A DNA stretch of 49,200 nucleotides from Candidatus Dojkabacteria bacterium (GTDB taxonomy: Bacteria; Patescibacteriota; Dojkabacteria; J137). Positions 15,599 through 47,162 of the stretch are shown here, in pieces. The number at the start of each line of letters is the position of its first letter. The first letter of the stretch is position 1. The DNA lies in assembly GCA_025061805.1 (NCBI GenBank), contig JANWZV010000003.1, positions 1 to 49,200 of the forward strand, given 5' to 3'. The position numbers and the translations under genes are program-made. The notes under the pieces were generated by a model. The model searched no databases. It was not told the origin of the DNA and saw only the letters and a program-made list of their open reading frames with translations.

Positions 15599-17785
15599 TT
15601 ATACACTAGCATTCTTGCCAACAACTTCAGAGAAGTCCACACCAGTACCTACAGCTGTAAATATAAGTTTAATAAATTCTATGACTCTATTTGGCTTAAC
15701 CAAAATTTCTGCAATAAATTCATTTCTGTCAATAACATCTGGTGTGTTATTTGATTCATCAGCAACAACAAGATAATCTGTCACTCCTCTTCTAGTCTTT
15801 ATACCCTCAAGGAAATTATTAACTAATCCAGCAAAACGAGATCTTGTAATTTCATCATTAAATTCAAAGAGGAAATATCTAGCCATCTTTTCAATGCTTC
15901 TTTCCATATGTAAGAACAATCTACGAACATTAATTCTATCAAATGCTGATGGTTTGGCTTGTAATGTCTTTTGACCCCAAATAACAGTTCCTTGTCCAAC
16001 AAAATTGGGAATTGGATTAATTCTATTATAATAAAGTATATCTCTTTGAGCTTTATTTGGATTTATTGCTACTCTATTTATTCCTGAAATAATACCCCTA
16101 TTCAAACCAGCAGCTGCAAACCAAGGATCATAGTTAAAATCAACTCTGGCAAAAACCGCACCAACATAGCCAGTTACTGGAACCCAACGGAATTTTTCAT
16201 TATAGAAATCAAAAATTTCAAAATATTGTCCGTAAATTGCAGAATAAGAAGAATTAATATTCAATTCTGTATTAACATAATCTGCCATTTTTGTATAAAC
16301 CATTGGTATTGGTTTCGCAGTAGAAACATTCATTATTTTGTTAACTGGAATATTTAATATAGCCATGCAATCTTTTCTAACATTTTTGCAAATATCATCA
16401 AGTGATCTCTTCAAAATTGTTGGATAATCTGGGTCAAGTAAAATATCTATTTCTAATTCTTCTTTATTTACAAAGAATGTTCTCCAACCAAACTCAATTT
16501 CTCCAACTAAATCAAATAGATTTTCTGTCAATGAATCTGCTCCACCCAATTTAACAAATGATGTAGTATAAATGGGTATTCCAGCTGCAGCAATTTCGCT
16601 TTTACCAATTAGGAAGTAAATATAATTACTATTTCCATTTACTAATTCAGGACCAAACATTTTATTACCCATTGTGTCTCTTTTATCTTTTAATTTAGAG
16701 CAAAGATACTTTTCTTGCAACTTACCTTTATAATAAACAAATAAGCAAAATTCATCATCACTTTCTGGTCCATATTCAAATGATGTTAATTCTTCTAAAA
16801 GACCAGAATTAAAATAAAATTCAGTAGCAGAAAGTGAATCTGTTGAAGTATTGAAATAAGCAATTGGCTCAATAAGATCATTTCTTAATGGACATCCCTT
16901 TAAATTATTATTATTTGGATCTTCATAAATAAAATGGGTGCTTGGTGGCGGTGTAAAATTTCCCCAAAAAGCATTATTAAATCCAGAAGTAGCATTAGAT
17001 GGTGCTGCATGAGCATTATAAAATTTATATAATACTGCTTGTTTTTCTCTTTCATTAACAACTTGTGCTACTTCTTGTTTTAGTCTTAATAGTTTTTTAT
17101 AATCTGTTGAACTTACAATACACACACTAACATCTTCATAATATTTTCCAGCGCCAATAGCAGTAAATGAATAATATTCATCAAACTGTTTATATGCATT
17201 CATTGTATCATATGAATAAGGTAAATCTATAGTTTTTACTCCTGGTGTATAATAACCAATTTTGCCTGATCCGCCTGATCCACCTGAACCACCAGATCCG
17301 CCTGAACCACCGGATCCGCCTGAACCACCAGATCCACCAGATCCACCTGAACCACCTGATCCGCCTGATCCGCCTGATCCACCTGAACCACCAGATCCGC
17401 CAGATCCTCCTGATGTATCTTCATAATCTACTACCATTGATAAACCATTTAAATTTAATGAATCATTGGAATCATTAATACCACTTAATCCATAAACAGC
17501 ACTTGCAACCTTTTTTTCTTCATCTTCAACACGTACAACATATAATTGATTAGATCCTTCCAAAAATGCTTTTGCTGTGAAAAAGTGTCTATAATTAACT
17601 TCATCTGGTGGTCCAAAAATATCAACATAATCTTTTTCAGAATTAACAAGAACTCGAACATTAACTGGACCCTTTGTAGCAGCTACAACTATTGCTCCTA
17701 CTGAAGATGTAACTGATGGAATTCTTAAAGATGCATCTCTCTCAATAATATCAACTGTTGGAGAAAGATTTGCTGAACCTGGCAT
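15599..17785 (-). CDS. gp18: Tail sheath protein gp18 with (GGS)16 insertion
   Basis: LSPTVDIIERD, KGPVN, PWFAAAGLNRG, WGQKTLQAKPSAFDRINVRRLF, FEFNDEITR, DESNNTPDVIDRNEF. Confidence 0.97.
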   Translation of the reverse strand: MPGSANLSPTVDIIERDASLRIPSVTSSVGAIVVAATKGPVNVRVLVNSEKDYVDIFGPPDEVNYRHFFTAKAFLEGSNQLYVVRVEDEEKKVASAVYGLSGINDSNDSLNLNGLSMVVDYEDTSGGSGGSGGSGGSGGSGGSGGSGGSGGSGGSGGSGGSGGSGGSGGSGGSGKIGYYTPGVKTIDLPYSYDTMNAYKQFDEYYSFTAIGAGKYYEDVSVCIVSSTDYKKLLRLKQEVAQVVNEREKQAVLYKFYNAHAAPSNATSGFNNAFWGNFTPPPSTHFIYEDPNNNNLKGCPLRNDLIEPIAYFNTSTDSLSATEFYFNSGLLEELTSFEYGPESDDEFCLFVYYKGKLQEKYLCSKLKDKRDTMGNKMFGPELVNGNSNYIYFLIGKSEIAAAGIPIYTTSFVKLGGADSLTENLFDLVGEIEFGWRTFFVNKEELEIDILLDPDYPTILKRSLDDICKNVRKDCMAILNIPVNKIMNVSTAKPIPMVYTKMADYVNTELNINSSYSAIYGQYFEIFDFYNEKFRWVPVTGYVGAVFARVDFNYDPWFAAAGLNRGIISGINRVAINPNKAQRDILYYNRINPIPNFVGQGTVIWGQKTLQAKPSAFDRINVRRLFLHMERSIEKMARYFLFEFNDEITRSRFAGLVNNFLEGIKTRRGVTDYLVVADESNNTPDVIDRNEFIAEILVKPNRVIEFIKLIFTAVGTGVDFSEVVGKNASV
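17264..17413 (-). repeat. Coding repeat S-(GGS)16-G within the sheath gene
   Basis: 144 nt (17267-17410) of 9-nt units GGN GGN TCN with mixed synonymous codons. Confidence 0.97.
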
Positions 17786-17806
17786 ATGAATCTCCTTTAT
17801 ATAATA

Positions 17807-17814
17807 TATTTATA
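17807..17814 (-). promoter_or_regulatory. T4-type late promoter TATAAATA (second copy at 17850-17857)
   Basis: Two exact consensus copies in the gap upstream of the sheath gene, with an AAGGAG SD. Confidence 0.7.
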
Positions 17815-17857
17815 ATACTATTTTAGTATAATATATTTTTCACATATAATATTTATA

Positions 17858-19441: not shown

Positions 19442-19442
19442 T

Positions 19443-20096
19443 TCAGCTATCCTTATAATTTTGAACTTTAGTTGATTGATTTTCTAACTCATTTACATTT
19501 ATAGAATTTTGTTGCTGTATATTTTTAATTTCTTCTTGTTCTTGTTTTTTAGCTTCATTTTTTAAAACATTTAAGGCATCTGCCAATGATCCAATAACAA
19601 CTACATTGTTTGTTGTATTTGGATTTGAAATTTTTGCTAAATTTTGTTTTTTAATATCTAATTTTTCCTTTTCAATATCAATTTTCTTTTTTTCATTTTC
19701 AATTTCATTTAATTCTTTTAATGCATTAACAACCGAATTTAATAAAGCAGCCATACATTCACCCATTCTTCCACTTGGATCTAATAATAATTCTTCTTGC
19801 ATTTGTCTTAAAGAAACCATTCCTATAGAGGATAATTCTTTTAAAGATTCTTTAATAAATTCTTCATCACCTTTTTTATTTTTTATTTCATTTAATAATA
19901 AAGAAAATTTTTCAGCCTCTTTTTTTCTTTCTAAATATTTTTCTTTTTCCTCTTGTTCTTTTTTATCTATTGATTCCGATGGAATCGTTTTTGCTACATC
20001 AGAAAAAGATAATGGTTTTTCATCTTTTAGTTTCTCTTGTTGATTATCATCTATATCAAGAATTTTTTGAACTTTCTTTTTTGAAAATTTTGGCAT
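19443..20096 (-). CDS. gp16: Terminase small subunit gp16-like
   Basis: PSGRMGECMAALLNSVVNALKEL coiled coil and TTNNVVVIGSLADAL motif. Immediately upstream of gp17. Confidence 0.75.
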   Translation of the reverse strand: MPKFSKKKVQKILDIDDNQQEKLKDEKPLSFSDVAKTIPSESIDKKEQEEKEKYLERKKEAEKFSLLLNEIKNKKGDEEFIKESLKELSSIGMVSLRQMQEELLLDPSGRMGECMAALLNSVVNALKELNEIENEKKKIDIEKEKLDIKKQNLAKISNPNTTNNVVVIGSLADALNVLKNEAKKQEQEEIKNIQQQNSINVNELENQSTKVQNYKDS

Positions 20097-20098
20097 TT

Positions 20099-21100: not shown

Positions 21101-21125
21101 AATACCTCTCTATTATATCATATAT

Positions 21126-22304: not shown

Positions 22305-22306
22305 GA

Positions 22307-23089: not shown

Positions 23090-23100
23090 ATATTATTCTC

Positions 23101-24057: not shown

Positions 24058-24064
24058 TTACAAT

Positions 24065-24072
24065 TATTTATA
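24065..24072 (-). promoter_or_regulatory. T4-type late promoter TATAAATA
   Basis: Exact consensus 7 nt upstream of the gp13 ATG. Confidence 0.6.
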
Positions 24073-24101
24073 TTTTTAAATATAAAAATAAAAAATTTAA
24101 A

Positions 24102-24840: not shown

Positions 24841-25635
24841 ATGAACAAAAAAATTCTTATTATAATTCCATTCAAATTTAAAGAATTAAGTAGAAAAAGA
24901 AATTTGTGGTATGTTTTACAAAATTTAACTCATTTTTTTAAAAATGAAAACACAATTAAAATTTCTCTTATAGAACAAGATACTCAAGCAAAAATAGAAC
25001 AAGAGTTAAAAAAAGATTTTCCAGAAATTTATTATGATTTTATATATAATCCATTGCCATTTAATAGATCATGGGCTTTTAATGTAAGTATTAATAAATA
25101 TAAAAAAGATTTTAATTATTTTGTTTTTTCTGATGCTGATGTTCTTATGCCAAAAGAAAATTATTATAAATTTTTAAATTTAATTGAAGAAAACAAAGTT
25201 ATTTTTAAACCTGTACCAGCATTAGATATTAATCAAAAAACAACAGAATTTATAATACAAAATTTTCCAATTTTTGAAAGTGAAAAGATAAAAAAATTAA
25301 ATATTCCCCAAAGTCAAAGATCCTTTTATAAAAGTGCTGGTATAATTTGTGCTACAAGTTTAAATATCCTAGAAAAAATTGGTGGTTGGGATGAAAGAAT
25401 GATTGGATGGGGTAGAGAAGATGATGCATTTTTCCAAGATATTTTAAACTTCAAAATCCCATATATTTTTCCAGAAATGAATTCATATCACTTATATCAT
25501 GAACCAAGCAGTGAAGTAAATAGTAGATTATTAGAAAGAAATACAATGTTTTTAAAAGAACATATTCACCCAAGAACATATAATCTTCTTAATTTAAGTA
25601 AAAAAGGAGATCCTGAAAAATATAAAAATTATTAA
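24841..25635 (+). CDS. Glycosyltransferase, GT-A fold (GT2/GT7 galactosyltransferase-like)
   Basis: IIIPFK, EQD, PFNRSWAFN, DxD motif FSDADV, IGGWDERMIGWGREDD, YHLYH. Confidence 0.9.
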   Translation: MNKKILIIIPFKFKELSRKRNLWYVLQNLTHFFKNENTIKISLIEQDTQAKIEQELKKDFPEIYYDFIYNPLPFNRSWAFNVSINKYKKDFNYFVFSDADVLMPKENYYKFLNLIEENKVIFKPVPALDINQKTTEFIIQNFPIFESEKIKKLNIPQSQRSFYKSAGIICATSLNILEKIGGWDERMIGWGREDDAFFQDILNFKIPYIFPEMNSYHLYHEPSSEVNSRLLERNTMFLKEHIHPRTYNLLNLSKKGDPEKYKNY

Positions 25636-26073: not shown

Positions 26074-27465
26074 TTATACTGATCCGGCTAATGATGAGCT
26101 GGAAAGACCGCGAACATCAATGTATCTATAATAGTTTTCAGCACCAAACAAATTATTGCAGAGACCATAACGAGTCATAACGCCGATTCTTGGATTGAAT
26201 GAATCCTGACCGACGGCCTCAAGGAATTGAATTGGAACATATGGGAGATAAATGATACCAGCATCAGCATCATCTCTACCCTTATATCCAACAACAGCAT
26301 AATCATTAGTAGCAAACATATCACGATAGACAGTGAAACGACCGATTGTTCCAACCTTAGCAACACCAGAAACTTCAGTGGCCAAGTTAGTAGCAACTGA
26401 AGAGAGAGCAAATTGCTCAAGAGCTTCAATAGCAGCAACAACACCTGGAGAAGCAAGAATAAAGTTACCAGCTCCTCTACGGGTTGCTACAGCAATTTCA
26501 TTAGAAGCCTTGAGGAAAACAGTATACAAAGTTCTGAACTTCTCTTGCTCCCAACGACCATCGGCACCACCAAAGTTAGAAGAATTATAGTCCCAAACAA
26601 GAACACCACCTACTTGAGCAAGTGCAATAATGTTGGCTTTTACTTCAGCATCAATTTCAGCGGCAATCTCATATGCAAGAAGATCGCTTAATTGTGCTGC
26701 AAGATCAACATTATGCATGTTCTTGAGGTCTTGCTGAGCTTCATGTGACCAGCGGGCTGCGAGTTTTCTAGTCTTGGCTTCAACTGTTTGGCGCTCAACT
26801 GAAAGGCCCATATAACGAATTCTATCCATTTCAGCAACGCCATTCCAGTGGAGTTCACCAAGACCCTCAGCATCACCTGTGCGATAGCCTCCACGAGGAA
26901 CAAGTCCACCTGGAACGCCACAGTCATTATAAGTACCATCGCCACCCTTTACTCTACCATTATCAACAACATTTGGCCAAGTAGCAATAAAATCAGCTGA
27001 TGTTGGTGTTGAAGTAGCAGTAACTGGATACCCACCTGAATAAAGAGCTTCTACTGTATTATATCCAGCTTCTTTGCCGGGGAATCCAGGTTTACCATTG
27101 AACTCACTCTGATAACGATAACGCAAAGCATAAGCAAGACCAACTGGTGTAAACATTGGCTGTACACCAACAAGATCATTTGTAACTAACTCAGGGAAAA
27201 CACGAGCGACAAGTGGCATTGCAATAGCCTGGAATCTTGCAATACCAGATGTCTGCCCAACATTGGAGGCGTTGGGGTGAGCTACTGCTGAATAAGTAGC
27301 ACCACCAGCAGAAGATGGGGCTTCTGTCAATAGGCCTTTGAAATATCTATTTTCCTGCTCAAGAAGCTGAGCTGTAATCTCTGCTTTGCGATCATCGCGA
27401 ATATGCTCTACAAGTGGTCTCCACTTTCTTACTAGAGCTTCTCTGATTGAATCCTGAAGTGCCAT
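26074..27465 (-). CDS. gp23: Major capsid protein gp23
   Basis: KWRPL, VGVQPMFTPVGLAYALRYRY, VEAKTRKLAARWSHEAQQDLKNMH, EIAAEID, TRRGAGNF, YLPYVP, SFNPRIGVMTRYG. Higher GC and codon bias of a highly expressed gene. Confidence 0.98.
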   Translation of the reverse strand: MALQDSIREALVRKWRPLVEHIRDDRKAEITAQLLEQENRYFKGLLTEAPSSAGGATYSAVAHPNASNVGQTSGIARFQAIAMPLVARVFPELVTNDLVGVQPMFTPVGLAYALRYRYQSEFNGKPGFPGKEAGYNTVEALYSGGYPVTATSTPTSADFIATWPNVVDNGRVKGGDGTYNDCGVPGGLVPRGGYRTGDAEGLGELHWNGVAEMDRIRYMGLSVERQTVEAKTRKLAARWSHEAQQDLKNMHNVDLAAQLSDLLAYEIAAEIDAEVKANIIALAQVGGVLVWDYNSSNFGGADGRWEQEKFRTLYTVFLKASNEIAVATRRGAGNFILASPGVVAAIEALEQFALSSVATNLATEVSGVAKVGTIGRFTVYRDMFATNDYAVVGYKGRDDADAGIIYLPYVPIQFLEAVGQDSFNPRIGVMTRYGLCNNLFGAENYYRYIDVRGLSSSSLAGSV

Positions 27466-32702: not shown

Positions 32703-34055
32703 TTATTTATAATTTTTTAACTTTATTTTTTCAATATATTCCTTTATATAATTTTCTTGATTTTCTAAATGAACAATAGTAGCATTTTTATCAGTTTCAA
32801 AATCTGTATGCCAAGGAATAAATTTACTTTCTGTTATTTTTATAGTATGATAATCAAAATAATTATGTAGGATTTCTTCTATTGTATATTTAGGAGAAAC
32901 TAGATTATAAAAAACTGGTTTTTCTTCATTGTAAATAAACTTATTATTCAAAATATTTTCAAAAACCCACTTAGCAATAACTTGAACATGTGTCGGTCTT
33001 ATATGATGTTTTGGATCAAACTCTATTGTTTTTAATAGTTTAATTTGGTTAAAAAGTTTATAAAAAACATTACAAAAATCTTGAACATCATCTGTAAATA
33101 AATTAGAAACCCTTAAAACAAAAATATTTTTTAATTTGACATTATTTTGTATTTGTTCAAGAATATAATTCTCATATTCTTTTTTACTTTGTGTATATTT
33201 ATCCAATTTTTCTTTTGGATATTTTTCTAAATTAACATTTTTATAAACATAATCAGTACTAAAATGAATAAATTTAATATTTAATTTATTTAATTTTTCT
33301 CCAAGAAAATATGGAAAAATAGCATTTACTCTTTTTACTTCATTAAAATCCAAAATATTTTCTATATCTTGAACATTAGTTTTTCCACAACAATTAATAA
33401 CATAAACATTTTCTGACTTAAAATAATTTTTAACATCATTTATTTTATTTGCGAAATCAAATATAAAATTATTATCAAAAATAGGAAATTTATCAAAAAA
33501 AGGAATAACTTGATAATTATCTAATGATAAATTTTTCATAAAAATATCATAAATTGTTCTTCCTAATCTTCCCTGAGAACCAAGAATAAAAATAATAGGT
33601 TTTCCAAAAATATTATCTTCATATCTTATTTCATCAACTTTGTACTTCTTTCCTTTTCCTTTGTAAAGACTTGTTGGAAAATTTCCAGTTATTGAATTTT
33701 TAAAATCTAAATTTCTATATGCATGAATAATTGGTGGTTCAACTTTAATTCTAAAAATATTTTGATTATCTGTAACAAAATATTCAAATTTCTTATTCTC
33801 ATCAAAAAAATAATAAACCATCTTATTTTTCCATGAAATAAAATAATCTATCTGTTTTCTATGTTGATGTGGACCTCTCATAAAAAATGGTTTTGTTTCA
33901 GACCAATAAGATTGTTTAACATTTTTTGTTTGATCATCATCAGAACGCCAAACTTCACATAAATTTCCTCTAGCATCTTTATAATCTTCAATAATATCAA
34001 TTGTAACTTTTCCATTAAAAAATGATGCAACTCTTTTATATGCTACTGTACTCAT
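32703..34055 (-). CDS. rmlC-rmlD: Fusion of an RmlC-like cupin epimerase (N-terminal) and an RmlD-like dTDP-4-dehydrorhamnose reductase (C-terminal)
   Basis: Cupin part DARGNLCEVWR, RGPHQH, IHAYRN, DEIR. SDR part ILGSQGRLG, INCCGKTNV, HFSTDYVY and the YxxxK motif YTQSK. Confidence 0.85.
   Translation of the reverse strand: MSTVAYKRVASFFNGKVTIDIIEDYKDARGNLCEVWRSDDDQTKNVKQSYWSETKPFFMRGPHQHRKQIDYFISWKNKMVYYFFDENKKFEYFVTDNQNIFRIKVEPPIIHAYRNLDFKNSITGNFPTSLYKGKGKKYKVDEIRYEDNIFGKPIIFILGSQGRLGRTIYDIFMKNLSLDNYQVIPFFDKFPIFDNNFIFDFANKINDVKNYFKSENVYVINCCGKTNVQDIENILDFNEVKRVNAIFPYFLGEKLNKLNIKFIHFSTDYVYKNVNLEKYPKEKLDKYTQSKKEYENYILEQIQNNVKLKNIFVLRVSNLFTDDVQDFCNVFYKLFNQIKLLKTIEFDPKHHIRPTHVQVIAKWVFENILNNKFIYNEEKPVFYNLVSPKYTIEEILHNYFDYHTIKITESKFIPWHTDFETDKNATIVHLENQENYIKEYIEKIKLKNYK
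32704..32711 (-). promoter_or_regulatory. T4-type late promoter TATAAATA
   Basis: Exact consensus overlapping the rmlCD stop; it would start the head operon. Confidence 0.55.
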
Positions 34056-34058
34056 AAT

Positions 34059-35123
34059 TTATTCTCCCAAGAAAAATGACCTATTTTCAACATACCAATC
34101 AATTGTTTCTGATAATCTTCTTTTTAAAGAAACTAAAGATGTCCAAGGAAGAGTGTCTTTAAGCATATATGCTTGATCATGTCCTAATCTATCTTTTATA
34201 AAAATAAATTCACCAGAAATATTATATTTCAATTTTAATTCTGATAAAATAAATTCAACAATTTGAACATTATTAAACAATTCTTGTGGTTTATAGGGGT
34301 AACCAATATGAATTATTGTATTATAATTTAAAGGATTTTGAAAAATATCACAAATTAAAGATACTGAATCTTTAACTGGAGTCCACTGTCTAATATTTTT
34401 ACCATTTCCATAAATTTCAATTGGCTTATTTCTCAAAACTTTAAATATAGCATTTGGAATAAATTTTTCTAAATGTTGATATGGACCAAATTGATTTGCT
34501 AATCGAATAATTTTAACAGGAAAATTAAAAGTATGTTTCAAACTTAATAGAAATAAATCTTGTGCTGCTTTTGAAGCAGAATATGGATTTTGTGGATTTA
34601 ATGGTGATTTTGTAGAAAAGTAATAATTTTCATCAAAAATATTTTCTAATTTTATATCACCATAAACTTCATCTGTACTTATATGAAAAAAATAATTAAT
34701 ATTTTTTATTTGAGTTAAATTTGAGACAATAGAAACATTATTTAATAAAAATTTTTGGGGCGTTTTAATACTGTTATCAACATGACTACAACTAGCAAAA
34801 TTGATAATATCAACAATTGTATTTCTTTTTTGAATTTCTTCACATATTTTTGAAAATTTTGAAGAAGATAAATCATATTTTTTTAAGTAAATTGGTACAT
34901 TAAGTTTTTTAAATTTTTCAATAACACTATTAAAAAAATACATATTATAACAGTTTGCATAATAATCTTCAAATAAATCAATTATATAAATTTCTGATAA
35001 ATCATTTAAAAAATATTTAAAATTATTCTCATTATTTTTATATCTTTCAAAGAAATATTCTAAAAAATTTAATCCTATAAATCCACAAACACCAGTTAAA
35101 ACTAATGTTTTTTGATCATTCAT
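34059..35123 (-). CDS. rmlB: dTDP-glucose 4,6-dehydratase
   Basis: LTGVCGFIG, SHVDNSI, HISTDEVYG, PQNPYSASK, GPYQHLEKFIP, YGNGKNIRQW, DRLGHDQAY. Confidence 0.95.
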   Translation of the reverse strand: MNDQKTLVLTGVCGFIGLNFLEYFFERYKNNENNFKYFLNDLSEIYIIDLFEDYYANCYNMYFFNSVIEKFKKLNVPIYLKKYDLSSSKFSKICEEIQKRNTIVDIINFASCSHVDNSIKTPQKFLLNNVSIVSNLTQIKNINYFFHISTDEVYGDIKLENIFDENYYFSTKSPLNPQNPYSASKAAQDLFLLSLKHTFNFPVKIIRLANQFGPYQHLEKFIPNAIFKVLRNKPIEIYGNGKNIRQWTPVKDSVSLICDIFQNPLNYNTIIHIGYPYKPQELFNNVQIVEFILSELKLKYNISGEFIFIKDRLGHDQAYMLKDTLPWTSLVSLKRRLSETIDWYVENRSFFLGE

Positions 35124-35138
35124 TAAAAATCTCCTTAA

Positions 35139-35178
35139 AATAGTAGTTGTTCAACAAAATGGTTGATCAACCACTATT
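35139..35178 (-). terminator. Long hairpin between gp32 and rmlB (terminator/attenuator or processing site)
   Basis: Minus strand AATAGTGGTTGATCAAC-CATTTT-GTTGAACAACTACTATT: 17-nt arms with one A-A mismatch and one G-U pair, ending next to the rmlB AAGGAG SD. Confidence 0.55.
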
Positions 35179-36088
35179 AAAATGGTGGTTGATCATCATC
35201 AAATTTAATTTTATCAATATCAATATCATCATTTTCAACATTTTCACTCTTATGAATTGCACTATGCACTTTTTCTCTTACAACAACATTTTCCTGTGAT
35301 TCTTTCTTTGTGTTTTTATTTTCCAAATTGTGTTTATTATTTTCATTTGTTGTAGAAGAAAAATTACCAAGCAATGACTTTAATTCATCATATGTCTTTA
35401 CTCTATTATTTAATATAACTTCATTCAAATCCTTTATATTTTTAATAATCTTCTCTTCTTCATCTGGATTACAAATAGCACTTGGTTTTCTTGAAAAATC
35501 AGAAGAATCATAATTTTGATAGTTTGAAACTTGCTTTACTATCAAATTAAAATCATATCCTTCTGTTTGGTGCCAGAAAAAAAGATTATGAGTTAGTATA
35601 GCCTCAATAAATTTATCATAAATTTTAGAACCAAATTCCCAAACAAGAACTTTTCCGGCCTGGTTTTCTTCTCCTTTTCTTGGATCTTCTTTCACTAAAA
35701 CATTCACAAAATATCTTCTCTTTATCCAATATTGACGAGCTAAATCAGTTGAATTTTTATCACCCTTACCAAACAAAAACTTAGAAAATTCACAAATTGG
35801 ACACTTATTTTGGAATGTTGTTGGACAAATTTCATAAACCATCTTTCCTTCTGCAGTATTAAAAATATGAACATTTGCTTGAATCCAAGGTGGATTTGGA
35901 CCATTATCTATCTTGCCATTTTTAATATTTGGAAGCACTCTAACTTTATATGTTGTTTTTGTTTCACCTTTAATTAACTTTGGTGTAAACCTCCAATCTC
36001 CACTTGACTTTTGTTGTATATTCTTCTTTTCAAGAAGAGACTTCTTGAGGGTTTCGAAGGAATTTATATCGAGATCAAACTTAGTCAT
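35177..36088 (-). CDS. gp32: Single-stranded DNA-binding protein gp32
   Basis: VRVLP, Zn ligands H...CPTT...CPIC, RYFVNVLVKEDP, GKVLVWEFGSKIYDK, GYDFNL, NYDSSDF and an acidic tail. Confidence 0.95.
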   Translation of the reverse strand: MTKFDLDINSFETLKKSLLEKKNIQQKSSGDWRFTPKLIKGETKTTYKVRVLPNIKNGKIDNGPNPPWIQANVHIFNTAEGKMVYEICPTTFQNKCPICEFSKFLFGKGDKNSTDLARQYWIKRRYFVNVLVKEDPRKGEENQAGKVLVWEFGSKIYDKFIEAILTHNLFFWHQTEGYDFNLIVKQVSNYQNYDSSDFSRKPSAICNPDEEEKIIKNIKDLNEVILNNRVKTYDELKSLLGNFSSTTNENNKHNLENKNTKKESQENVVVREKVHSAIHKSENVENDDIDIDKIKFDDDQPPF

Positions 36089-37051: not shown

Positions 37052-37063
37052 ATTTTTCTCCTT

Positions 37064-38446: not shown

Positions 38447-38480
38447 AAACTTTCTCTCCTTTTATTTTTTAAGAAAATTT

Positions 38481-39614: not shown

Positions 39615-39641
39615 AGTTCACTCCTAATTCAGATCTCACTT

Positions 39642-39669
39642 ATTATAATATAAAAAATAAAAATGTAAA
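39642..39669 (-). promoter_or_regulatory. Sigma70-type (early) promoter TTTACA-N16-TATAAT upstream of uvsX
   Basis: -35 at 39664-39669 and -10 at 39642-39647, the same spacing as the gp32 promoter. Confidence 0.6.
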
Positions 39670-39677
39670 AATAAAAA

Positions 39678-41435
39678 TTATTCCATTTTCGGATGTCTAA
39701 TTTTATCAATTTCAAAACGAATGGGAGATTTATTTGGTTCTACTAGGGAAGCATTATAAGAAACTTTATAATTTATTTGATCTTTATTAAATAAAACATA
39801 TTTAACTTTTATAAATTCATTATTACAATCAACAAAAGAATAATAATAAATTCCAACATTTTCTTCTTGTTCTTCATTTTGTTTATTTTTAATAAGATCA
39901 TTTAACATATTTTTAAAAGTTTCATTTTTATTTAAAAATTTAATTATGAATGAAACTAAAAAGAAATTCAAATAACCATGATTTGTTGATTTTACACCAC
40001 TATGTGGGTCAAACAAATTTATCATTACTCTTTTTGTATCATTTTTAATATTTGATATTCCTAATACTCTTTCATATATTTCTAATAATTTTTCAACAAT
40101 AAATTCTGGTTTATATTTCTTAGAACTTATTATCTTAGAATGCCACTGATCTAAATCTTCTATTCTAATATCTTTTAATTCATAACCAATTTTATTAAAA
40201 GTTATATTTATTTGATTTAAAAGTTCTTGTAAAACATGGGGAAAATATTTCTTAATAATTTCTTGAGAAACAGAAACTAAATTTTCAGCTCTTGTCTTAC
40301 TAGAAAACCTTTTAATAATATCTAAACATAACTTTGTTTCTGGATTATTTTTAATTTCTCTTTCATATTTACTTTCTAATTTATTAATATTGCTTTCTGT
40401 TAAAAATGGTTGTAAAGCAGATCCTCTTGCTCCTTCTGTTTTTACAGAAAAGAAATAAAAAATATTTCTACTTCCAATACCAGAAAAATCATATAATGTA
40501 TTAGAAGCTTCCGGATACTCTATTTTTTCTACAAAGTTTAAATTTTTTAATGCTAATAAAGCTGAGAAAACTTCTCCAAAATTTTTAGAAATAATTTTTA
40601 AATCCTGTTCGGTAAGATTATATTTTTTATCCGCACCAAAACGATGGACTTTTATTATTTCTGAGCCATTATCTTTCATTTCAATTTCTTGACTGTTTTC
40701 AATAGAAAATGTAATACAATCATTTAGATATTCATATATTTGTTGAGCAATATTATTTTTGAGAGAATCTTTTTTTTCTAATTTATCTTTAAATTTTTCA
40801 TAAATTTTATTTCTTAATACTTTTTCCAAAGTTTTGTAACTAGAAAAACTTTTATTTTCTAAACCTAAATCAGATGGAGATAATTCCATTGTACTTGAAG
40901 AAATAAAATAATTTTTTGAAACATCTAATCCACCAAGAATTCTCTTTAATTCTTGTTTTGGTTTTGACAAAAAACTTAATGGAATAAAAATTTCTTCATT
41001 TTGATAATTTACTTTCGCTAATGATATAACTTTCTTTGTTTTCTTAGAAATTTCATCAAAAACAGTATGGGAGAATATTGTATCATCTAAAATTTTTACT
41101 TCCGAATTTCGGGGAATAAATTTTTCTCTTTCTTTAAAGGGGGAACTTTCACTAGAAGAAACAGAAGAAACTGGTTTTACTAAATCATAAACAACATTTA
41201 TATCACTATTTGTAACAGTTTTTACTTCTAATGGTAATAATTCTTTACCTAATTGATCTCCTTTTTCTAAGTCTTTATTCATTTCTCTTATTTTATTAAA
41301 TAAATCTACAACATATTTTTTCCATGATGGAACCCCACCAGAACTTTTTCCTGCTAAAGATGCTTTTTCTTCATAAAGAATTTTGTTATAATTTCTTCTA
41401 ATATACCATGCTTTATAAGTAAAATATTTATTCAT
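39678..41435 (-). CDS. Hypothetical protein (585 aa) with a possible PD-(D/E)xK-like nuclease core
   Basis: KNFGEVFSAL...IEYPEASNTLYDF...FFSVKTEG resembles the E...D...xxK layout of restriction-type nucleases. AAGGAG SD. The CDS is certain; the function is tentative. Confidence 0.55.
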   Translation of the reverse strand: MNKYFTYKAWYIRRNYNKILYEEKASLAGKSSGGVPSWKKYVVDLFNKIREMNKDLEKGDQLGKELLPLEVKTVTNSDINVVYDLVKPVSSVSSSESSPFKEREKFIPRNSEVKILDDTIFSHTVFDEISKKTKKVISLAKVNYQNEEIFIPLSFLSKPKQELKRILGGLDVSKNYFISSSTMELSPSDLGLENKSFSSYKTLEKVLRNKIYEKFKDKLEKKDSLKNNIAQQIYEYLNDCITFSIENSQEIEMKDNGSEIIKVHRFGADKKYNLTEQDLKIISKNFGEVFSALLALKNLNFVEKIEYPEASNTLYDFSGIGSRNIFYFFSVKTEGARGSALQPFLTESNINKLESKYEREIKNNPETKLCLDIIKRFSSKTRAENLVSVSQEIIKKYFPHVLQELLNQINITFNKIGYELKDIRIEDLDQWHSKIISSKKYKPEFIVEKLLEIYERVLGISNIKNDTKRVMINLFDPHSGVKSTNHGYLNFFLVSFIIKFLNKNETFKNMLNDLIKNKQNEEQEENVGIYYYSFVDCNNEFIKVKYVLFNKDQINYKVSYNASLVEPNKSPIRFEIDKIRHPKME

Positions 41436-41468
41436 AGAAAAAAACTCCTTTTTATATTATTTATTAAA

Positions 41469-44207
41469 CTAAGAAAAAAGATCTCCTTCTGAAATGGAAT
41501 TATATTTTAAATCTGGTAATTTCCAATTTAAAACATTAAAAATACTTTTAATTGGACTTAGTACAGCCCTATTAAACTGTTCTTCTTTATTGACATATTT
41601 TTCAAGATTTAATTCTTTGGGAAATTTATCTTTAAATCCAATAACATTCTCTGGCCATTGTGGATTTTCAATAATATACACATATTTCATTTTATCTCCA
41701 CTTTTTATTGGTTCATATTTTTTTGTAAGTAATTTATTTTTTGAAATTGCATTATTATATAAAATAGCCGCTCTAATGTGCATTGGAGTTGATTTAAAAC
41801 CACCATGATTTTTATATTTTTCTAAATATTCATCCAAATTATTCACAGATGAAGGAAAAGCAATATCTACTATATCAGCATTTTTAAATTTCTCATAAAG
41901 ATTATACAACTCTTGTATAGTAAATTGATAATTTGTTTTTAATAAGATGTTTTTAATAATGGTTTTCAAATTTTCTCTGGCAAATGGTGGAGTAGACGAT
42001 CTAACAACATCGATCCCAACAAGTTTTAATCTTTTTCCTTCTTCTAACTCTACACCCTCACTGTTTATAACCCACATAGCATAATGCTTTTTAGCATTTA
42101 AAAACAATGCTCTAGATGCAATAGCTTCTCTCTTAAAAAATATAGTATTTTTTTGTAAATTACAATATTGTGTTGTCAGAATCTGCATATTTTTCTGAAT
42201 AATGGAACTTACTAAATTAATTAATGAAGATGCTTGTTCTTCTTGTTTTTCTTTTTCTTCTTTTGACCATAAATCAAAAAATTCTGAATTTTCCTTTTCA
42301 ATATTAAATAACAAAAAATTTTTAATTTTTTCATCAGACTTTGATAAATCAAAACCCATTGATTTTAAAATTTTTTCAAATGAAACATACAAAGAATCAG
42401 TATCACCATAAATTACAACATCTGAAACTATTTGATTTTTATTATTTCCAAATTGTTTATTGTTTTCCCATTTAGAACTACTAAAATAACTATTAATTGC
42501 ATATATGCTTGATGTTGTAATAAGTCTTCCAGTCATAGTTACAGCAACAGCATTATCATAATCATACAATCGAGAATGTGGTGTTCCCAAATAACCATAA
42601 ACACTATTAATCAAAATTTTATAATTATATTGTAATCCATCATATTCTTCTTCTTTCTCTTTGTTATGTTGTTCTTTTGCTTTTAACATCAATTTTTTAT
42701 ATTCTTTTCTTTTATCAAACCACTCTTTAACAAATTTCCCAACCACTCCCTGAACATCAGTTTTATATATTGCACCATTAGCAGCTAAACAATATTTATT
42801 TTTTTTCATAAAATCAGCAAATTTTCTAATTGAAATTTCTTTTCCTGAAATTTGCATAACTGTATCATCTTGATGTTGATCATCCGCCAAACATTTCATA
42901 AGAGGTTTAACATATTGCTTTGGAATAACAGTAATTTTTGTTTCTGGGCTTATATTCCAACCCATCATAATTGATGGATACAATGATGTAGCATCAAATG
43001 AAACAATCCACTGATGAATTCCCGGTTCTGGATCTTTTACATAACCACCAATATATTTTTCATCTTCTTTTTCATTTACATCTGAAAAATTCCTAACATC
43101 TGGAAGGACAATTTTATCTTGTGCTAATCTTGAAAGAAAAGCACCATCCAAAACTTTTGTTGTTTTCACAAAGTGTTCAAAAGGAACTCTACACCCATAA
43201 CAAAAAGTAAACAACAAATTAAAAAACTTCTTTTTTTCATCTAATTTCTTCAAAAGTCTAACATCTTGAATATTATATTCTACATATTGTTGCCAATTTT
43301 TATACAAATCAGCAATAGTTCCATCATATGGAATTTTTGATTCACCAATTTCTTTTTTAGCTATATAATCTAGTTTCCAAGATTCTTGTTCAGAAAAGGT
43401 ATAATTTTGAAAAACTTCCATATAATCAAGCAAATTTATTCCTGGAATTTCAAATCTTTCTTCAAATTTATATTCTGAAATTGGAAGTCTTCTACTATAA
43501 ACATAATCTATAGGTGAAATTTTTGAAGCTCCATCTTTGATAATTCTTCCCTTTTCATTTTGTTCATAGCCAAATAATTTTCTACAACGATTAATAATAT
43601 ATGGTATATCATATCCATTACTATTCCACCCAGAAATAACATCTGGATGTGTTTTTTGAATAAAATTCATAAATTCATTTAAAAGTTCTTTTTCATCCTC
43701 ATGAATATATTTTTCAAAATTTTCATTATTTTTTCTTAAAAACTTATCATCAAAATCTTTTTCACAAAATATAAAAAATTTCTTTTGTTTTGTTGACCAA
43801 ATAGTAATAATTTTGATTGGATAATTTGCGTCTTTCGCTTCTGGAAAACCGGCATCTGAGTAAACCTCAATGTCCAAAAAATAAATATCAAAAATAGGAA
43901 GTTTTAAATCAATTCCTAAATAATGCTGAATAATAAATTTTGTTTCTATTGGAACATCAGATTCATAAGTTTCAATGTTTTTTGACTTATAATATTGAAT
44001 CTTATCTTTGTAAGTATACCAATCTTTACATTCTATTTTTTTGACTAAATTTCCAAAAATTGTTTTATATTCAGAATTTCTATCTTGAGAAGAAATAAAA
44101 AAATACAATGGTGGGTCATAAACATTAAGTTTTTTTATTCCATTTTCATATTCCCAACAAAGAATTTTATTTGTTTGGAATTTATCATAATAAACATATG
44201 AATACAT
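41469..44207 (-). CDS. gp43: Family B DNA polymerase gp43
   Basis: Exonuclease DIEV, GWNSNGYDIPY, YNIQDV. Polymerase SFDATSLYPSI, KILINSVYG, YGDTDS, KKHY. No intein-sized insertion. Confidence 0.98.
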   Translation of the reverse strand: MYSYVYYDKFQTNKILCWEYENGIKKLNVYDPPLYFFISSQDRNSEYKTIFGNLVKKIECKDWYTYKDKIQYYKSKNIETYESDVPIETKFIIQHYLGIDLKLPIFDIYFLDIEVYSDAGFPEAKDANYPIKIITIWSTKQKKFFIFCEKDFDDKFLRKNNENFEKYIHEDEKELLNEFMNFIQKTHPDVISGWNSNGYDIPYIINRCRKLFGYEQNEKGRIIKDGASKISPIDYVYSRRLPISEYKFEERFEIPGINLLDYMEVFQNYTFSEQESWKLDYIAKKEIGESKIPYDGTIADLYKNWQQYVEYNIQDVRLLKKLDEKKKFFNLLFTFCYGCRVPFEHFVKTTKVLDGAFLSRLAQDKIVLPDVRNFSDVNEKEDEKYIGGYVKDPEPGIHQWIVSFDATSLYPSIMMGWNISPETKITVIPKQYVKPLMKCLADDQHQDDTVMQISGKEISIRKFADFMKKNKYCLAANGAIYKTDVQGVVGKFVKEWFDKRKEYKKLMLKAKEQHNKEKEEEYDGLQYNYKILINSVYGYLGTPHSRLYDYDNAVAVTMTGRLITTSSIYAINSYFSSSKWENNKQFGNNKNQIVSDVVIYGDTDSLYVSFEKILKSMGFDLSKSDEKIKNFLLFNIEKENSEFFDLWSKEEKEKQEEQASSLINLVSSIIQKNMQILTTQYCNLQKNTIFFKREAIASRALFLNAKKHYAMWVINSEGVELEEGKRLKLVGIDVVRSSTPPFARENLKTIIKNILLKTNYQFTIQELYNLYEKFKNADIVDIAFPSSVNNLDEYLEKYKNHGGFKSTPMHIRAAILYNNAISKNKLLTKKYEPIKSGDKMKYVYIIENPQWPENVIGFKDKFPKELNLEKYVNKEEQFNRAVLSPIKSIFNVLNWKLPDLKYNSISEGDLFS

Positions 44208-44251
44208 ATTTTAACCCCTCACAATATAATTTTACATTTGAATAAATAAAA

Positions 44252-45316
44252 TCAAGAAAAATTTGATTTATAAAGTTCTTTATATATTCCAATGTTTTCT
44301 GAACTTTCAAGCCATCTTTTTGCTAATTCTGCTTTTCCAGCTTGTAAATATTTTTGATAAGACTCTTCATTATTCCATAGCTCCTTAATAGCAGAATACC
44401 ACAAATCAATTTTATTTTCCAAAGTTAATAAACCAGGAACTAAATCATATGGTCCTTTTTTATTTCCAATTGAAGAACAAATAACAGGAAATCCCAATGC
44501 AGAATATTCTAAAATTTTTAAATCAGATTTTGCTAAATTAAATAAGCTATCAGCTATAGGAGCTATTGCTATATCAGCATCTATTTCATCCAATGCATTA
44601 GGATATTCAATAACATTCCTCCATTTATGTTTTTCTACTTTTCCTTCTAATTCTGGTGGTGCAGTTCCAAAAAATATCCAATGAAATTCATTTAAAGTTT
44701 TCTCTATAAGAGGAATTAAAAATTCTAGATCACCACCTTTTCCAATATGAGATGAAGAACCAGCCCATAAAATTCTTGGTCTGTTTTCTTTTTTTCTTTT
44801 ATCTCTTTTCCCAAGATTTTTCCATACATAATGGGGTAAAAAATTTGGTACTACATATGAATTTTTAATATTGAATTTCTCTTCATAATAGTCTTTCAAA
44901 AATTTAGTAGAAAAAGTAACAAAATCACATATTCTAAAAATTTCTATTAAATTATTTTTTCTTGTTTGTGTATAAAATTTATAAGCCATAGTATTATGTG
45001 GCATTATTTCATGAACTAAATCATCCAAATCATAAGATAATTTTGTTGGAAATCCAAATTTTTTTATATTTTCTTTATAAAAACTAATTATTTTTGTTTG
45101 AGAAATTGTAACTTGTCTTTGAAATCTTATATGATCTGATATTTTTATAAAATTAATATCAAAATTAAAAGCAAATAATTCAGAAACTTCATAATTTTCA
45201 TCACAAACTGCTAAATATCTAAATGGATAAAAAGTTCTATAAAATCCACACCCATGTTTATCTGCTGGATATAAAATAATTTTGGATGGTTTATTTTTAT
45301 TCTTTTGCATATTCAT
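44252..45316 (-). CDS. Glycosyltransferase, GT-B fold (GT4-like)
   Basis: GCGFYR, YDLDD, VTFST, VVPNFLP, ILWAGSSSH, DIAIAPIADSLFNLAKSDLKILEYSALGFPVICS. Confidence 0.88.
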   Translation of the reverse strand: MNMQKNKNKPSKIILYPADKHGCGFYRTFYPFRYLAVCDENYEVSELFAFNFDINFIKISDHIRFQRQVTISQTKIISFYKENIKKFGFPTKLSYDLDDLVHEIMPHNTMAYKFYTQTRKNNLIEIFRICDFVTFSTKFLKDYYEEKFNIKNSYVVPNFLPHYVWKNLGKRDKRKKENRPRILWAGSSSHIGKGGDLEFLIPLIEKTLNEFHWIFFGTAPPELEGKVEKHKWRNVIEYPNALDEIDADIAIAPIADSLFNLAKSDLKILEYSALGFPVICSSIGNKKGPYDLVPGLLTLENKIDLWYSAIKELWNNEESYQKYLQAGKAELAKRWLESSENIGIYKELYKSNFS

Positions 45317-45361
45317 TTTTATTTCCTCTGAAAACTATATTATATATTTTTTTTTAAAAAA

Positions 45362-45369
45362 TATAAATA
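45362..45369 (+). promoter_or_regulatory. T4-type late promoter TATAAATA upstream of gp55
   Basis: Exact consensus on the + strand 38 nt before the gp55 ATG, in a very AT-rich context. Confidence 0.45.
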
Positions 45370-45407
45370 ATAAATAATTTATATAAAATTAAGTATATGG
45401 AGATCAT

Positions 45408-45860
45408 ATGCAAAAGAAAAAAACAATTAGAAAAAAGAAACCAATAGCTTCTAAAGAAGATTATTATATTGACAATGATGAATATGTTAAAGAAATCTTA
45501 AATTATAAAAAAACTGGTATAGCTTCAGAAAGATTAGGAGAGTTATTTACTCTTCATACAGAGAGATATGCTTCCGCACTTTCTTTTAAAAATTATACAT
45601 TCTTAGAAGAAATGAAATCCCAGGCAAAATTATTTTTACTTAAATATGCCAAATCATTTGATCCAAACTATGATTCAAAAACTGGAAAAAAATTAAATGC
45701 TTTTGCTTATTGTACAGCTATAATATATAATGCTTTTATACAAGTAATTAATAGAGAAAAAAAGCATTCAAAATTAAAAGATAAAATTATAAAAGTATAT
45801 AAAGATATTAATTTTTATTCAGATAAAATAAGATCTCTTAAAAATGTTGATTTAGAGTAA
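45408..45860 (+). CDS. gp55: Late-transcription sigma factor gp55
   Basis: YYIDNDEY, FKNYTFLEEMKSQA, SFDPN, NAFAYCTAIIYNAFIQVINREKK. Confidence 0.92.
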   Translation: MQKKKTIRKKKPIASKEDYYIDNDEYVKEILNYKKTGIASERLGELFTLHTERYASALSFKNYTFLEEMKSQAKLFLLKYAKSFDPNYDSKTGKKLNAFAYCTAIIYNAFIQVINREKKHSKLKDKIIKVYKDINFYSDKIRSLKNVDLE

Positions 45861-47162
45861 TTTATCCAACTTAACCTCAGAATCAAATAAATTTTTATTA
45901 TGTAAAGAATTTATTATATCAATTATAGTAAAATGTATTTTCTCTTTTTCAAAAATACAAACTGTTGTTGCAAATTTTGGAAATAGTGAAATCCATTTTT
46001 TATGAACTTTTATAGCACATTCTTTAAATTTTTCATAATGATTGTTATGAAGAAAATTAGATGTTCCATCTGATAAGTGAATACATTCTGCATTTATTGC
46101 AAAATTTTTCATTTTTCTTCTTTTTGCTTCTAAACAAATATCAACTCCATAAAAATGAAAATGATCAATAATATTTTCATCAAAATACAATATATTATTA
46201 TTTTTAATAATTAAACACAATTCATCTAAAGTATCAACCTCATAAAAATCATAGTATTTTTGACTTTTTGAATTTAAATTTTTTTGATCATGTAGATAAA
46301 TAATTGGTTTTAAAAAATTATTTTCATTTAAAATTCCAGCTATTCCTAAAACTCCCCAATTAATTCTTTTTAATTTACAAACAATAAAATATTTTATTTT
46401 TTCTAACCACATAAAATTAGGAAATAATAAATCTTGATGACAAATTAAAATATATTTTCCAGAAGATAAATTTATTCCGTAATTTAATGGTTGAGAGCAA
46501 TTTGTAAAATGATTATCAAAATTTAATAATGATATTATTTCAATATTTTCAGAAAATAGTTGATTTTGTAAACTTTTTAATTCATTTAAATATATTTCTT
46601 TGTTATTAACTAGAATGACTAAAGTAAAAAAAACATTTTTTTTATCATTATATTTTTTTAAAGAAATAAATTTATTTTTTATATAATTTTCAGTAGTATC
46701 TTCTAAATCTAAAATTTTCAAATTCTTAAAACAATTAACAAAAAAATATTTTTTCACAATTTTTACAAAATTTGAAAAAATTTTATTAAAATCAATAAGT
46801 ATTAAGAAAAAATTTTCTTTATTTATTAAATTTTCAATTTTATCATTTTTAAATACTATATCATTAAAAGTATATTGATCTTCTAAATTTTTATTGTAAA
46901 AATAAAAAAAATCAACATCATTCAAAATATTAAATTTTCTTATTACATCTGATGCAGTTTTCAAATTTTCTATTTTATCTATATTTTTTAAAAATATTAC
47001 AAATTTATAGTTAGTAAAAGAAAATGAAGAAATAAAATTAATTTCATTTTGAATATATTTGTTTATGTTTTCATTTTTAATATATTTTTGATTAGCTTTT
47101 AAATAATCAGTAAACAAAATATTATTTGAAACTTCTTCTTTAAAATAATTTTTAATATCCAT
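45852..47162 (-). CDS. Glycosyltransferase, GT-A fold (GT2-like) with an N-terminal domain of unknown function
   Basis: C-terminal half PLNYGI, YILICHQD, WGVLGIAG, VDTLDELCLII, FHFYGVDICL, CIHLS. Confidence 0.82.
   Translation of the reverse strand: MDIKNYFKEEVSNNILFTDYLKANQKYIKNENINKYIQNEINFISSFSFTNYKFVIFLKNIDKIENLKTASDVIRKFNILNDVDFFYFYNKNLEDQYTFNDIVFKNDKIENLINKENFFLILIDFNKIFSNFVKIVKKYFFVNCFKNLKILDLEDTTENYIKNKFISLKKYNDKKNVFFTLVILVNNKEIYLNELKSLQNQLFSENIEIISLLNFDNHFTNCSQPLNYGINLSSGKYILICHQDLLFPNFMWLEKIKYFIVCKLKRINWGVLGIAGILNENNFLKPIIYLHDQKNLNSKSQKYYDFYEVDTLDELCLIIKNNNILYFDENIIDHFHFYGVDICLEAKRRKMKNFAINAECIHLSDGTSNFLHNNHYEKFKECAIKVHKKWISLFPKFATTVCIFEKEKIHFTIIDIINSLHNKNLFDSEVKLDKLL

Follow-up and report, generated by a model that had tools for sequence, protein, structure and literature searches.

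Known glycosylation systems and how the locus compares

Glycosyltransferases (GTs) of phages have three proven jobs, i.e. protection of the DNA, serotype conversion of the host and, since 2023, shielding of the virions of actinobacteriophages. We analysed a phage contig of 49,200 bp (JANWZV010000003.1, our contig C126, 25.6% GC; the whole contig is called the window below), which carries genes for a predicted 6-deoxyhexose pathway of the RmlA/RmlB/RmlC-RmlD type and several GTs. The original prediction for this DNA was that the phage makes its own deoxysugar donor and builds a multi-sugar glycan on its particle. The first part is now supported more strongly than was known then. As for the second, we favour with rather less than even confidence the reading that the predicted deoxyhexose and the GTs modify the virion proteins.

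Virion O-glycosylation was reportedly described by Freeman et al. in 2023 for mycobacteriophage Che8 and its relatives. According to two papers, the capsid and tube proteins of mycobacteriophages are glycosylated at their C-termini (PMC12619734, PMC11256854), and their GT genes are located near the 3' end of the genome, apart from the structural genes (PMC11256854). The window phage resembles them in having GTs outside the structural operon and C-terminal extensions on capsid and tube that could bear glycans. It differs in being a T4-like myovirus with a predicted sugar-nucleotide route of its own, and in having GTs that are conserved lineage-wide and syntenic with replication genes.

Giant viruses (Mimivirus with R141 and L780, and the chloroviruses) glycosylate their virions using virus-encoded rhamnose synthesis, for which they have a single short-chain dehydrogenase/reductase (SDR) serving as epimerase/reductase and not a cupin-RmlD fusion as in the window phage. 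In both cases the virus encodes a 4,6-dehydratase, an epimerase/reductase and a number of soluble GTs, which do not depend on host glycosylation, and the Mimivirus R141 structure (6vlo) is among the PDB matches to the window dehydratase at 34059-35123. Unlike the window phage, giant viruses have eukaryotic hosts and chemically demonstrated glycans. The bacterial RmlABCD pathway has the same four activities in the same order as predicted for the window phage, in which RmlC and RmlD are, unlike in that pathway, fused with the cupin first. Cap5F of S. aureus also joins an SDR and a cupin, with the SDR first and the cupin second.

In PMC13326640, the T4-like phages RB69 and DLP3 are described as making their own UDP-arabinose and as glycosylating 5-hydroxycytosine with GT-B enzymes, of which they encode two or three as DNA arabinosyltransferases; a ThyA homologue recognizable by D169N makes the 5-hydroxycytosine. 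The window phage shares with T-even-type DNA glycosylation (T4 alpha/beta-GT; arabinosyl-5-hydroxycytosine of RB69 and DLP3; RL38J1) a T4-like genome, a phage-made nucleoside diphosphate (NDP) sugar and genes placed among those for replication and nucleotides. It differs in that no ThyA-type hydroxylase or hydroxymethylase, TET or C5-methylase was found, in a route that appears dTDP-6-deoxyhexose-like, as opposed to one for UDP-arabinose or UDP-galactofuranose, and in the GT-A type of three of its four GTs.

Wall-synthesis and wall-modification genes of cyanophages are island genes, unlike the sugar genes of the window lineage, which are syntenic and core-like. T4-like cyanophages are similar in being aquatic and in having many GTs, NDP-sugar epimerases and an RmlC, according to PMC12801897. 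The O-antigen systems of lysogenic conversion (Gtr/Wzy) have membrane transferase, flippase and ligase parts, of which none was found here (no transmembrane segment in the four GTs of the phage, Wzy_C in 0/7 records; GtrA/GtrB models not searched). Our literature search (few subscription papers, supplements excluded) found no description of virion glycosylation in a T4-like phage.

A predicted phage-borne deoxyhexose pathway

The window is a distant T4-like myovirus. The PHROGs search gave a tail sheath (1.4e-103) and a major head protein (2e-91), and the capsid is only ~35% identical to those of cultured phages, the best matches being cyanophages. The bin that contains it (G000) has 192 contigs, 1.63 Mb, 28% GC and 86% completeness. 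We compared the phage with the related records G001, G002 and G006 to G009 (completeness range 49-92%), of which G001 (177.5 kb, 76% complete) and G002 (214 kb, 90% complete) were fetched whole. The RmlB, the RmlC-RmlD fusion and the three GTs proposed originally are all borne out by Pfam, NCBIfam, PHROGs, PDB and Foldseek matches. Together with an RmlA-like gene on another contig of the bin (C103), the genes are as follows.

34059-35123, minus strand: RmlB-like NDP-glucose 4,6-dehydratase, 354 aa (Pfam, NCBIfam, PDB matches)
32703-34055, minus strand: fusion of an RmlC-like cupin (residues ~1-150) and an RmlD-like 4-reductase (~155-450) (Pfam, AlphaFold2 (AF2), Foldseek, profile)
C103 4417-5208: RmlA-like nucleotidyltransferase (NTP_transferase, NCBIfam rmlA)
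24841-25635, plus strand: GT1, a GT-A glycosyltransferase inside the structural module (Pfam)
44252-45316, minus strand: GT2, a GT-B (GT4-like) glycosyltransferase between gp43 and gp55 (PHROGs, fold, lineage conservation)
45852-47162, minus strand: GT3, with a Glyco_tranf_2_5 GT-A domain (residues 181-380), overlapping the end of UvsW by 11 nt

The RmlB-like protein matches GDP_Man_Dehyd (1.4e-34) and Epimerase (6.9e-30) in Pfam, and 10/10 of its PDB matches at E<=1e-20 are dTDP-glucose 4,6-dehydratases. Its best NCBIfam model is dTDP-glucose 4,6-dehydratase (TIGR01181), with 205.7 bits below the equivalog cut-off of 365.1. Strong relatives are found in 5/6 large related records (38-44% identity in G001, G002, G007, G008 and G009), and RmlA-like genes in 3/6.

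The reductase part of the fusion matches RmlD_sub_bind (PF04321) at 1.9e-16 and 60.4 bits, above the cut-off of 27, and scores only 50.7 bits with the RmlD equivalog model TIGR01214, below the cut-off of 224. The cupin part has weak matches (PF14667 at 1.1e-4, FdtA at 2.3e-3), and Pfam dTDP_sugar_isom does not match the protein. The AF2 model of the fusion has a predicted local distance difference test score (pLDDT) of 93.4; in Foldseek its reductase part has RmlD structures among the best matches, and residues ~1-150 match the RmlC homologue 1wlt (E 1.3e-9, 155 columns). PF14667 is listed for 29/35 near-full-length homologues. A profile of 36 homologues finds RmlD structures best (3.2e-21), followed by Cap5F (6.5e-12). 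The cupin residues D27, R29, G30, E34, R60, G61 and H63 are invariant across the 36 sequences and resemble RmlC motifs.

No RmlA gene lies within the window, as was noted originally. The gene on C103 matches NTP_transferase (1.7e-50), has rmlA as its best NCBIfam model (204.9 bits, below the cut-off of 360.65) and has a counterpart of 53% identity in a syntenic block of G001. This contig (27.6 kb, 25.8% GC) is probably part of the same phage, because its genes are 32-70% identical to those of G001 with partial synteny. It also encodes DHFR, a canonical thymidylate synthase, dCMP deaminase and ribonucleotide reductases. The 1.63-Mb bin contains no further copy of the Rml-like or GT genes (tblastn, E<=1e-3), and therefore the phage would supply the entire route. 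We regard it as settled, at the level of predicted function, that the RmlA, RmlB and RmlC-RmlD set is complete and phage-borne, split between the window and C103; its conservation in the relatives adds to the case for a donor made by the phage itself. "Rhamnose" stands here for a 6-deoxyhexose of the RmlABCD pathway type, since every Rml-type score falls short of the NCBIfam equivalog cut-off.

The glycosyltransferases

Three of the four GTs of the phage are GT-A enzymes and GT2 is a GT-B. GT1 matches Glyco_transf_7C (2.5e-7) and Glyco_tranf_2_2 (1.5e-6), and its nearest homologues are only 29-33% identical. It is on the plus strand, and RmlB, RmlC-RmlD, GT2 and GT3 are all on the minus strand. 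We collected 18 IMG/VR loci with capsids 59-85% identical to that of the window: GT1 is absent from 18/18 of them and from G001 and G002, and no rml gene lies within 10 kb of the capsid in these loci either.

GT2 matches phrog_7162 (2.5e-36) and reaches 25 bits with Glyco_trans_1_4, below the cut-off of 27. Its sequence does not match any PDB chain. The model has a GT-B fold (pLDDT 94.5), and the best fold matches are GT4-family enzymes with varied acceptors, i.e. BshA, PglA, MshA, PimA, GtfC/Gtf3, SdgB and TarM.

GT3 matches Glyco_tranf_2_5 (2.7e-10) behind an N-terminal region of 180 aa with no assigned family, and has relatives in G001 and G002. Its counterparts G002:C1:160976-162469, G008:C1:109860-110921 and G009:C1:106706-107743 lie within frames of 616-636 aa that also carry an N-terminal Glycos_transf_2 domain, suggesting a two-GT fusion in these three records. 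GT4 (Glyco_tranf_2_4) is on C103, where it comes right after a tail-fibre gene that encodes a Peptidase_S74 domain. None of GT1-4 has a transmembrane-like segment, the maximum 19-residue hydropathy being <=1.52 versus 3.16 for the tape-measure-like protein of the window. GT2 and GT3 are conserved in the lineage, and GT1 and GT4 are phage-specific, recent additions.

Conservation within the replication module

Nearly all window genes are coded on the minus strand, with tail, baseplate and head genes from 1 to ~32,700 and the replication genes gp32, dUTPase, gp41, UvsX, gp43, gp55 and UvsW from ~35,000 to the end. The sugar genes are indeed interleaved with core T4-like genes, as first described, and the conserved ones sit in the replication module, not in the structural one. 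Their direct neighbours are:

35177-36088, minus strand: gp32 single-stranded DNA-binding protein, directly upstream of RmlB
41469-44207, minus strand: gp43 DNA polymerase, directly downstream of GT2
45408-45860, plus strand: gp55 late sigma factor, divergent from GT2
47152-48651, minus strand: UvsW helicase, directly upstream of GT3

Both G001 and G002 have gp32-RmlB-RmlCD, gp43-GT2-gp55 and GT3 adjoining UvsW. After the rml pair, both records carry counterparts of the genes on bin contig C159 for the clamp, the clamp loader, gp62 and RegA (gp45/44/62/regA). GT2 is better preserved than the polymerase gp43 (59% and 57% identity in G001 and G002 versus 51% and 43%).

A scan of IMG/VR with a GT2 profile matched at least 600 stretches, and at least 411 stretches among the 600 matches listed encode GT2 relatives. 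We took the 80 best loci for context and found gp43 in 72, nearly always next downstream on the same strand, gp55 in 40 and UvsW in 37. GT2 keeps its place beside gp43 among phages whose gp43 is just 27-60% identical; one distant locus has the order UvsY-UvsW-gp55-gp47-gp46-GT2-gp43-UvsX-QueC. Among 50,697 cultured-phage records, GT2 relatives occur only in two Streptomyces phages (4 records, 27% identity), where the gene, upstream of terL, has a sugar epimerase and a methylase next to it, and no T4-like record in that set, cyanophages included, has one. The lineage-wide synteny indicates that RmlB, RmlC-RmlD, GT2 and GT3 are an old, core-like part of the replication module in a large uncultured lineage.

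We scored the T4 late-promoter core TATAAATA in the window and, in the relatives, up to 120 nt upstream of each gene. The window has 20 copies versus 16 expected, and 11/14 minus-strand copies precede a start codon, in most cases that of a structural gene, by at most 80 nt. The motif was found upstream of the following genes in the loci of the relatives.

Structural module: sheath 6/6, scaffold 9/9, protease 11/16, portal 10/16, capsid 4/17
GT2 and replication genes: GT2 1/77, gp43 0/66, UvsX 0/35, UvsW 0/13

By these counts GT2 resembles an early or middle gene. A late promoter ahead of UvsW/GT3 in the window was considered as a sign of late expression and dropped, in view of the count for UvsW.

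Ser/Thr/Gly tracts of the structural proteins

The original prediction leaned largely on hydroxyl-rich tracts of virion proteins. All are present as quoted, including GSSGV in gp15. The main ones are:

17267-17410, minus strand: (GGS)16 insertion, residues 126-173 of the tail sheath (gene 15599-17785)
5492-5554, minus strand: (TSG)7, a Gly-X-Y-type tract, residues 106-126 of the open reading frame (ORF) 5414-5869
26077-26103, minus strand: capsid C-terminal tail SSSSLAGSV (gene 26074-27465)
14917-15567, minus strand: tail tube, whose C-terminal extension (~30 aa) is rich in S/T/P/G

Only (GGS)16 and (TSG)7 are above chance. Pure G/S/T runs of at least 15 residues number 2 in the 49 kb of the window versus 1 in ~2,470 kb of viral loci, both related and other, with some double counting of stretches. 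The maximum Ser+Thr content per 12-residue window is 6 in the capsid and 5 in the tube, and 6 each in UvsX, gp43 and UvsW and 7 in ORF 39678-41435; the dUTPase C-terminal end GFGSSGTV resembles GSSGV of gp15. The (GGS)16 and (TSG)7 repeats are both perfect at the protein level, but their DNA matches by only 80-85% (80% for (GGS)16). Neither is therefore a fresh slippage product, and (GGS)16 looks maintained at the level of the protein. The homologues in G001 and G002 (2/2) have a (TSG)n tract in the corresponding place. Weak Atlas leads for the repeats are viral clusters with Collagen repeats in ~35% of members.

The capsid C-terminus carries the motif L-x-x-S-[SA]-L-[SA]-[GP]-S in 17/17 relatives with the C-terminus present, and also in G008 and G009. 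The capsid loop (PTTAT-STPTSADF type) is likewise a conserved motif in the same 17/17 and in G008 and G009. Some relatives lengthen the tail to ~25 residues rich in S, T and P, and the G006 capsid has a T/S-containing tail of 13 aa. A cyanophage capsid used for comparison stops one residue past the position matching window residue 454 and so has no tail, which from this single contrast makes the tail specific to the GT2-bearing lineage. The tube extension is found in 3/3 genomes (window, G001, G002), its sequence not being conserved.

Candidate acceptors

From the demonstrated genes, folds, conservation and positions we infer a sugar, an acceptor and a benefit. The RmlA/RmlB/RmlC-RmlD-type route would start from glucose-1-phosphate and yield an L-rhamnose-type 6-deoxyhexose in nucleotide-activated form, which the four soluble GTs would use in the cytoplasm on an acceptor supplied by the phage. 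The most likely acceptor would be Ser/Thr of virion proteins, with the C-termini of capsid (the lineage-specific tail) and tube (the extension) and the Gly-Ser/Thr repeats as candidate sites, and the outcome would be a short O-glycan containing deoxyhexose on the particle. We give the virion the preference because the function would be intrinsic to the phage, the enzymes are soluble, the capsid tail is lineage-specific, and actinobacteriophages and giant viruses provide precedents. The location of GT1 inside the structural module and of GT4 directly behind the tail-fibre gene also counts for it, as do the (TSG)n tract shared with G001 and G002 and the maintained look of (GGS)16.

Several observations weigh against a virion target. 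The tracts of capsid, tube and gp15 are no denser in Ser/Thr than non-structural proteins. The (GGS)16 insertion is missing in the sheaths of 12/12 relatives, including full-length ones in G001 and G002, although these two records have GT2, GT3 and the rml genes; this goes part of the way to the case named originally as refuting the idea, i.e. relatives in which GTs and tracts do not go together. Both (GGS)n and (TSG)n fit ordinary Gly-X-Y or linker repeats, a common motif of phage fibres, and the conserved capsid tail motif could equally be a structural contact. The conserved rml and GT genes are all among replication genes and none among structural genes, and GT2 has no late-promoter motif of the kind marking the structural genes. 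Early or middle expression of GT2 is still compatible with a virion target, because mycobacteriophage GTs are also away from structural genes. The sugar may not be rhamnose, since the RmlA-, RmlB- and RmlD-type scores are below the NCBIfam equivalog cut-offs, and the glycan itself is a prediction from sequence. Two supporting ideas were given up. GT7-like enzymes and Ser-Gly acceptors offered an analogy for pairing GT1 with Ser-Gly tracts, and a long G/S/T tract occurs in 0/67 of the viral loci that hold a GT1-like gene. The Streptomyces phage KimJongPhill has a GT2 relative by terL and a capsid without a Ser/Thr-rich tail. The original reading is thus weakened, as most of the tracts it leaned on fail; the capsid tail, (TSG)n and the tube extension remain compatible with a virion target, and the virion is a candidate acceptor.

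The GTs could instead put the phage-made deoxyhexose on a host glycoconjugate during infection, masking receptors or altering the surface, which is the customary reading of such genes in aquatic T4-like phages. We consider this rather unlikely; the target would be a lipid-linked O-unit, a cell-wall polysaccharide, a glycolipid or an S-layer or surface protein. dTDP-rhamnose is a typical precursor of wall or O-antigen, and the lack of a late-promoter motif before GT2 fits an early action on the host. However, host glycans are not expected to be so constant as to fix the sequence and place of GT2 beside gp43 polymerases only 27-60% identical. The GTs also lack transmembrane segments, Wzy_C was absent from the records searched as noted above, and the bin has no rml genes of its own (tblastn; the bin is 86% complete and its status as host uncertain).

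DNA glycosylation, in which the GTs would use the phage-made sugar nucleotide to decorate a modified base of the phage DNA and so escape restriction, as in T-even phages, RB69 and DLP3, is quite unlikely in our view: the context fits, but no acceptor enzyme is seen. The fit lies in the placement of the conserved genes in the replication module, i.e. gp32-RmlB-RmlCD-(gp45/44/62/regA), gp55-(gp47-gp46)-GT2-gp43-UvsX and UvsW-GT3, and in the absence of a late-promoter motif before GT2. In T4 the alpha-gt and beta-gt genes adjoin genes 47/55 and uvsX/42. The best fold matches of the RB69 and DLP3 GT-B enzymes (3mbo, 6kih, 2gej, 7qsg), as given in PMC13326640, are top entries for GT2 too. Yet DNA alpha-GTs are just 14th and 16th in the BFVD ranking of GT2, with TM scores of 0.60-0.61, and no known enzyme creating an acceptor hydroxyl was found. 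By the diagnostic residues taken from PMC13326640, the sole ThyA homologue of the phage, on C103 with DHFR and dCMP deaminase, is canonical (Leu143, Asp169, Asn177). There is no ThyA homologue in G002 (90% complete), G006 and G007, neither Tet_JBP nor a C5-methylase in G001 and G002, and no TGT in any phage record, with the records 49-92% complete. We know of no dTDP-deoxyhexose on DNA. That the lineage glycosylates its DNA with a 6-deoxyhexose without a ThyA-type hydroxylase or TET, GT2 being a new kind of DNA glycosyltransferase, is less likely again. A last alternative, which we also consider rather unlikely, is a small molecule, a membrane lipid or a non-virion phage protein as acceptor, the tracts being unrelated linkers or collagen-like. 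The top fold matches BshA and MshA of GT2 act on small molecules, glycolipid synthases are also found among the GT4 enzymes, and (TSG)n and (GGS)n are Gly-X-Y triplets with the weak collagen-repeat leads. Flagellins are classic O-glycosylated proteins, and C103 has a flagellin homologue at a distance of 3.4 kb from the RmlA-like gene and 5.2 kb from GT4; G001 and G002 have the conserved GTs but no such flagellin. A full deoxyhexose pathway with up to four GTs indicates a glycan rather than a single small-molecule product, and no particular acceptor of this class has positive evidence.

Other features of the phage and its bin

Some candidate base-modifying genes were examined and rejected. A 7-deazaguanine link was dropped because QueC is found only in G006 and G007 besides the distant GT2 locus, and TGT in no phage record; in that distant GT2-bearing group QueC (preQ0 synthesis) adjoins UvsX (L075 11389-12111; G006, G007), and no TGT/DpdA was found there. 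The ThyX-like ORF at C103 6640-7455 matches Thy1 only below the cut-off (E 1e-4), has no RHR motif and has no homologue in G002. A second, divergent ThyA homologue in G008 (332 kb) at G008:C1:168324-169220 (L221 1243-2139; 298 aa, Pfam 3e-11) lies 1.1 kb after an ordinary thymidylate synthase, and its best PDB match is B. subtilis ThyA (3.8e-5). It may be a base-modifying enzyme confined to that sub-lineage; with a weak match in G009 and no counterpart in the bin of the window, G001 and G002, it cannot explain the conserved GTs.

The flagellin homologue of C103 (L048; 8627-9478, plus strand) has 283 aa, with Flagellin_N at 2.9e-31 and Flagellin_C at 1.5e-13, about the length of a flagellin without the large variable domain. 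DHFR and a GMP-reductase-like gene lie on either side. The flagellin gene has 34% GC versus 22-29% in its neighbours, and is the sole flagellin-like gene of the 1.63-Mb bin. A 65% identical copy (L218 1-552) ends a second viral contig, beside DHFR and ThyX-like homologues.

Within the window, the interval 35124-35176, where gp32 has ended and RmlB has yet to start, holds a perfect hairpin (TGATCAACCAC...GTGGTTGATCA), possibly a terminator for the gp32 transcript or an element that regulates it. Further features are:

1-2970, minus strand: ORF running off the left contig end and terminating in a run of 11 prolines
3534-4727, minus strand: ORF with long acidic Gly/Glu-rich tails at both termini (GGGEEGGGMEMGGGEGAGIGGEMGG...)
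9218-13081, minus strand: tape-measure-like protein, 1,287 aa, with hydrophobic segments; at 10008-10648 its gene has a 261-bp tandem repeat x2.5 with nested 87-bp repeats
39678-41435, minus strand: ORF of 585 aa between UvsX and gp43, with the densest Ser stretch among the non-repeat proteins (SSVSSSESSPFK); it belongs to no Pfam family and lacks homologues in G001 and G002

The bin contigs C159, C103, C133, C146 and C110 also hold genes of this phage. Contig C104 (116,990 bp) is a second, much more distant T4-like phage, whose portal, terL, gp43 and gp55 relatives are only ~26-38% identical to the G001 and G002 versions and in which no relatives of the rml or GT genes were found at E<=1e-3. 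The RpoB segment of the bin (C11 22994-24163, L137) is <=60% identical to any of 185,579 species representatives, so the cellular part of the bin is deep-branching; the best matches are unclassified and Patescibacteria-type metagenome-assembled genomes. The phage contigs may have been grouped into the bin by composition, and the pairing of phage and bin as host is uncertain.

Implications

An abundant environmental lineage of T4-like phages has a deoxyhexose pathway and a GT locked beside its polymerase, yet the known DNA-acceptor enzymes were not found. If the virion is the target, the mechanism known from actinobacteriophages would extend to myoviruses of aquatic bacteria and to phages making their own donor sugar. 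If it is DNA, a new base chemistry would be involved, and if it is the host surface, host remodelling would here be a conserved, core-like function and not that of an island gene. The gene set is small, and the fixed pairing of GT2 with the polymerase together with a full phage-borne pathway makes a good, testable puzzle.

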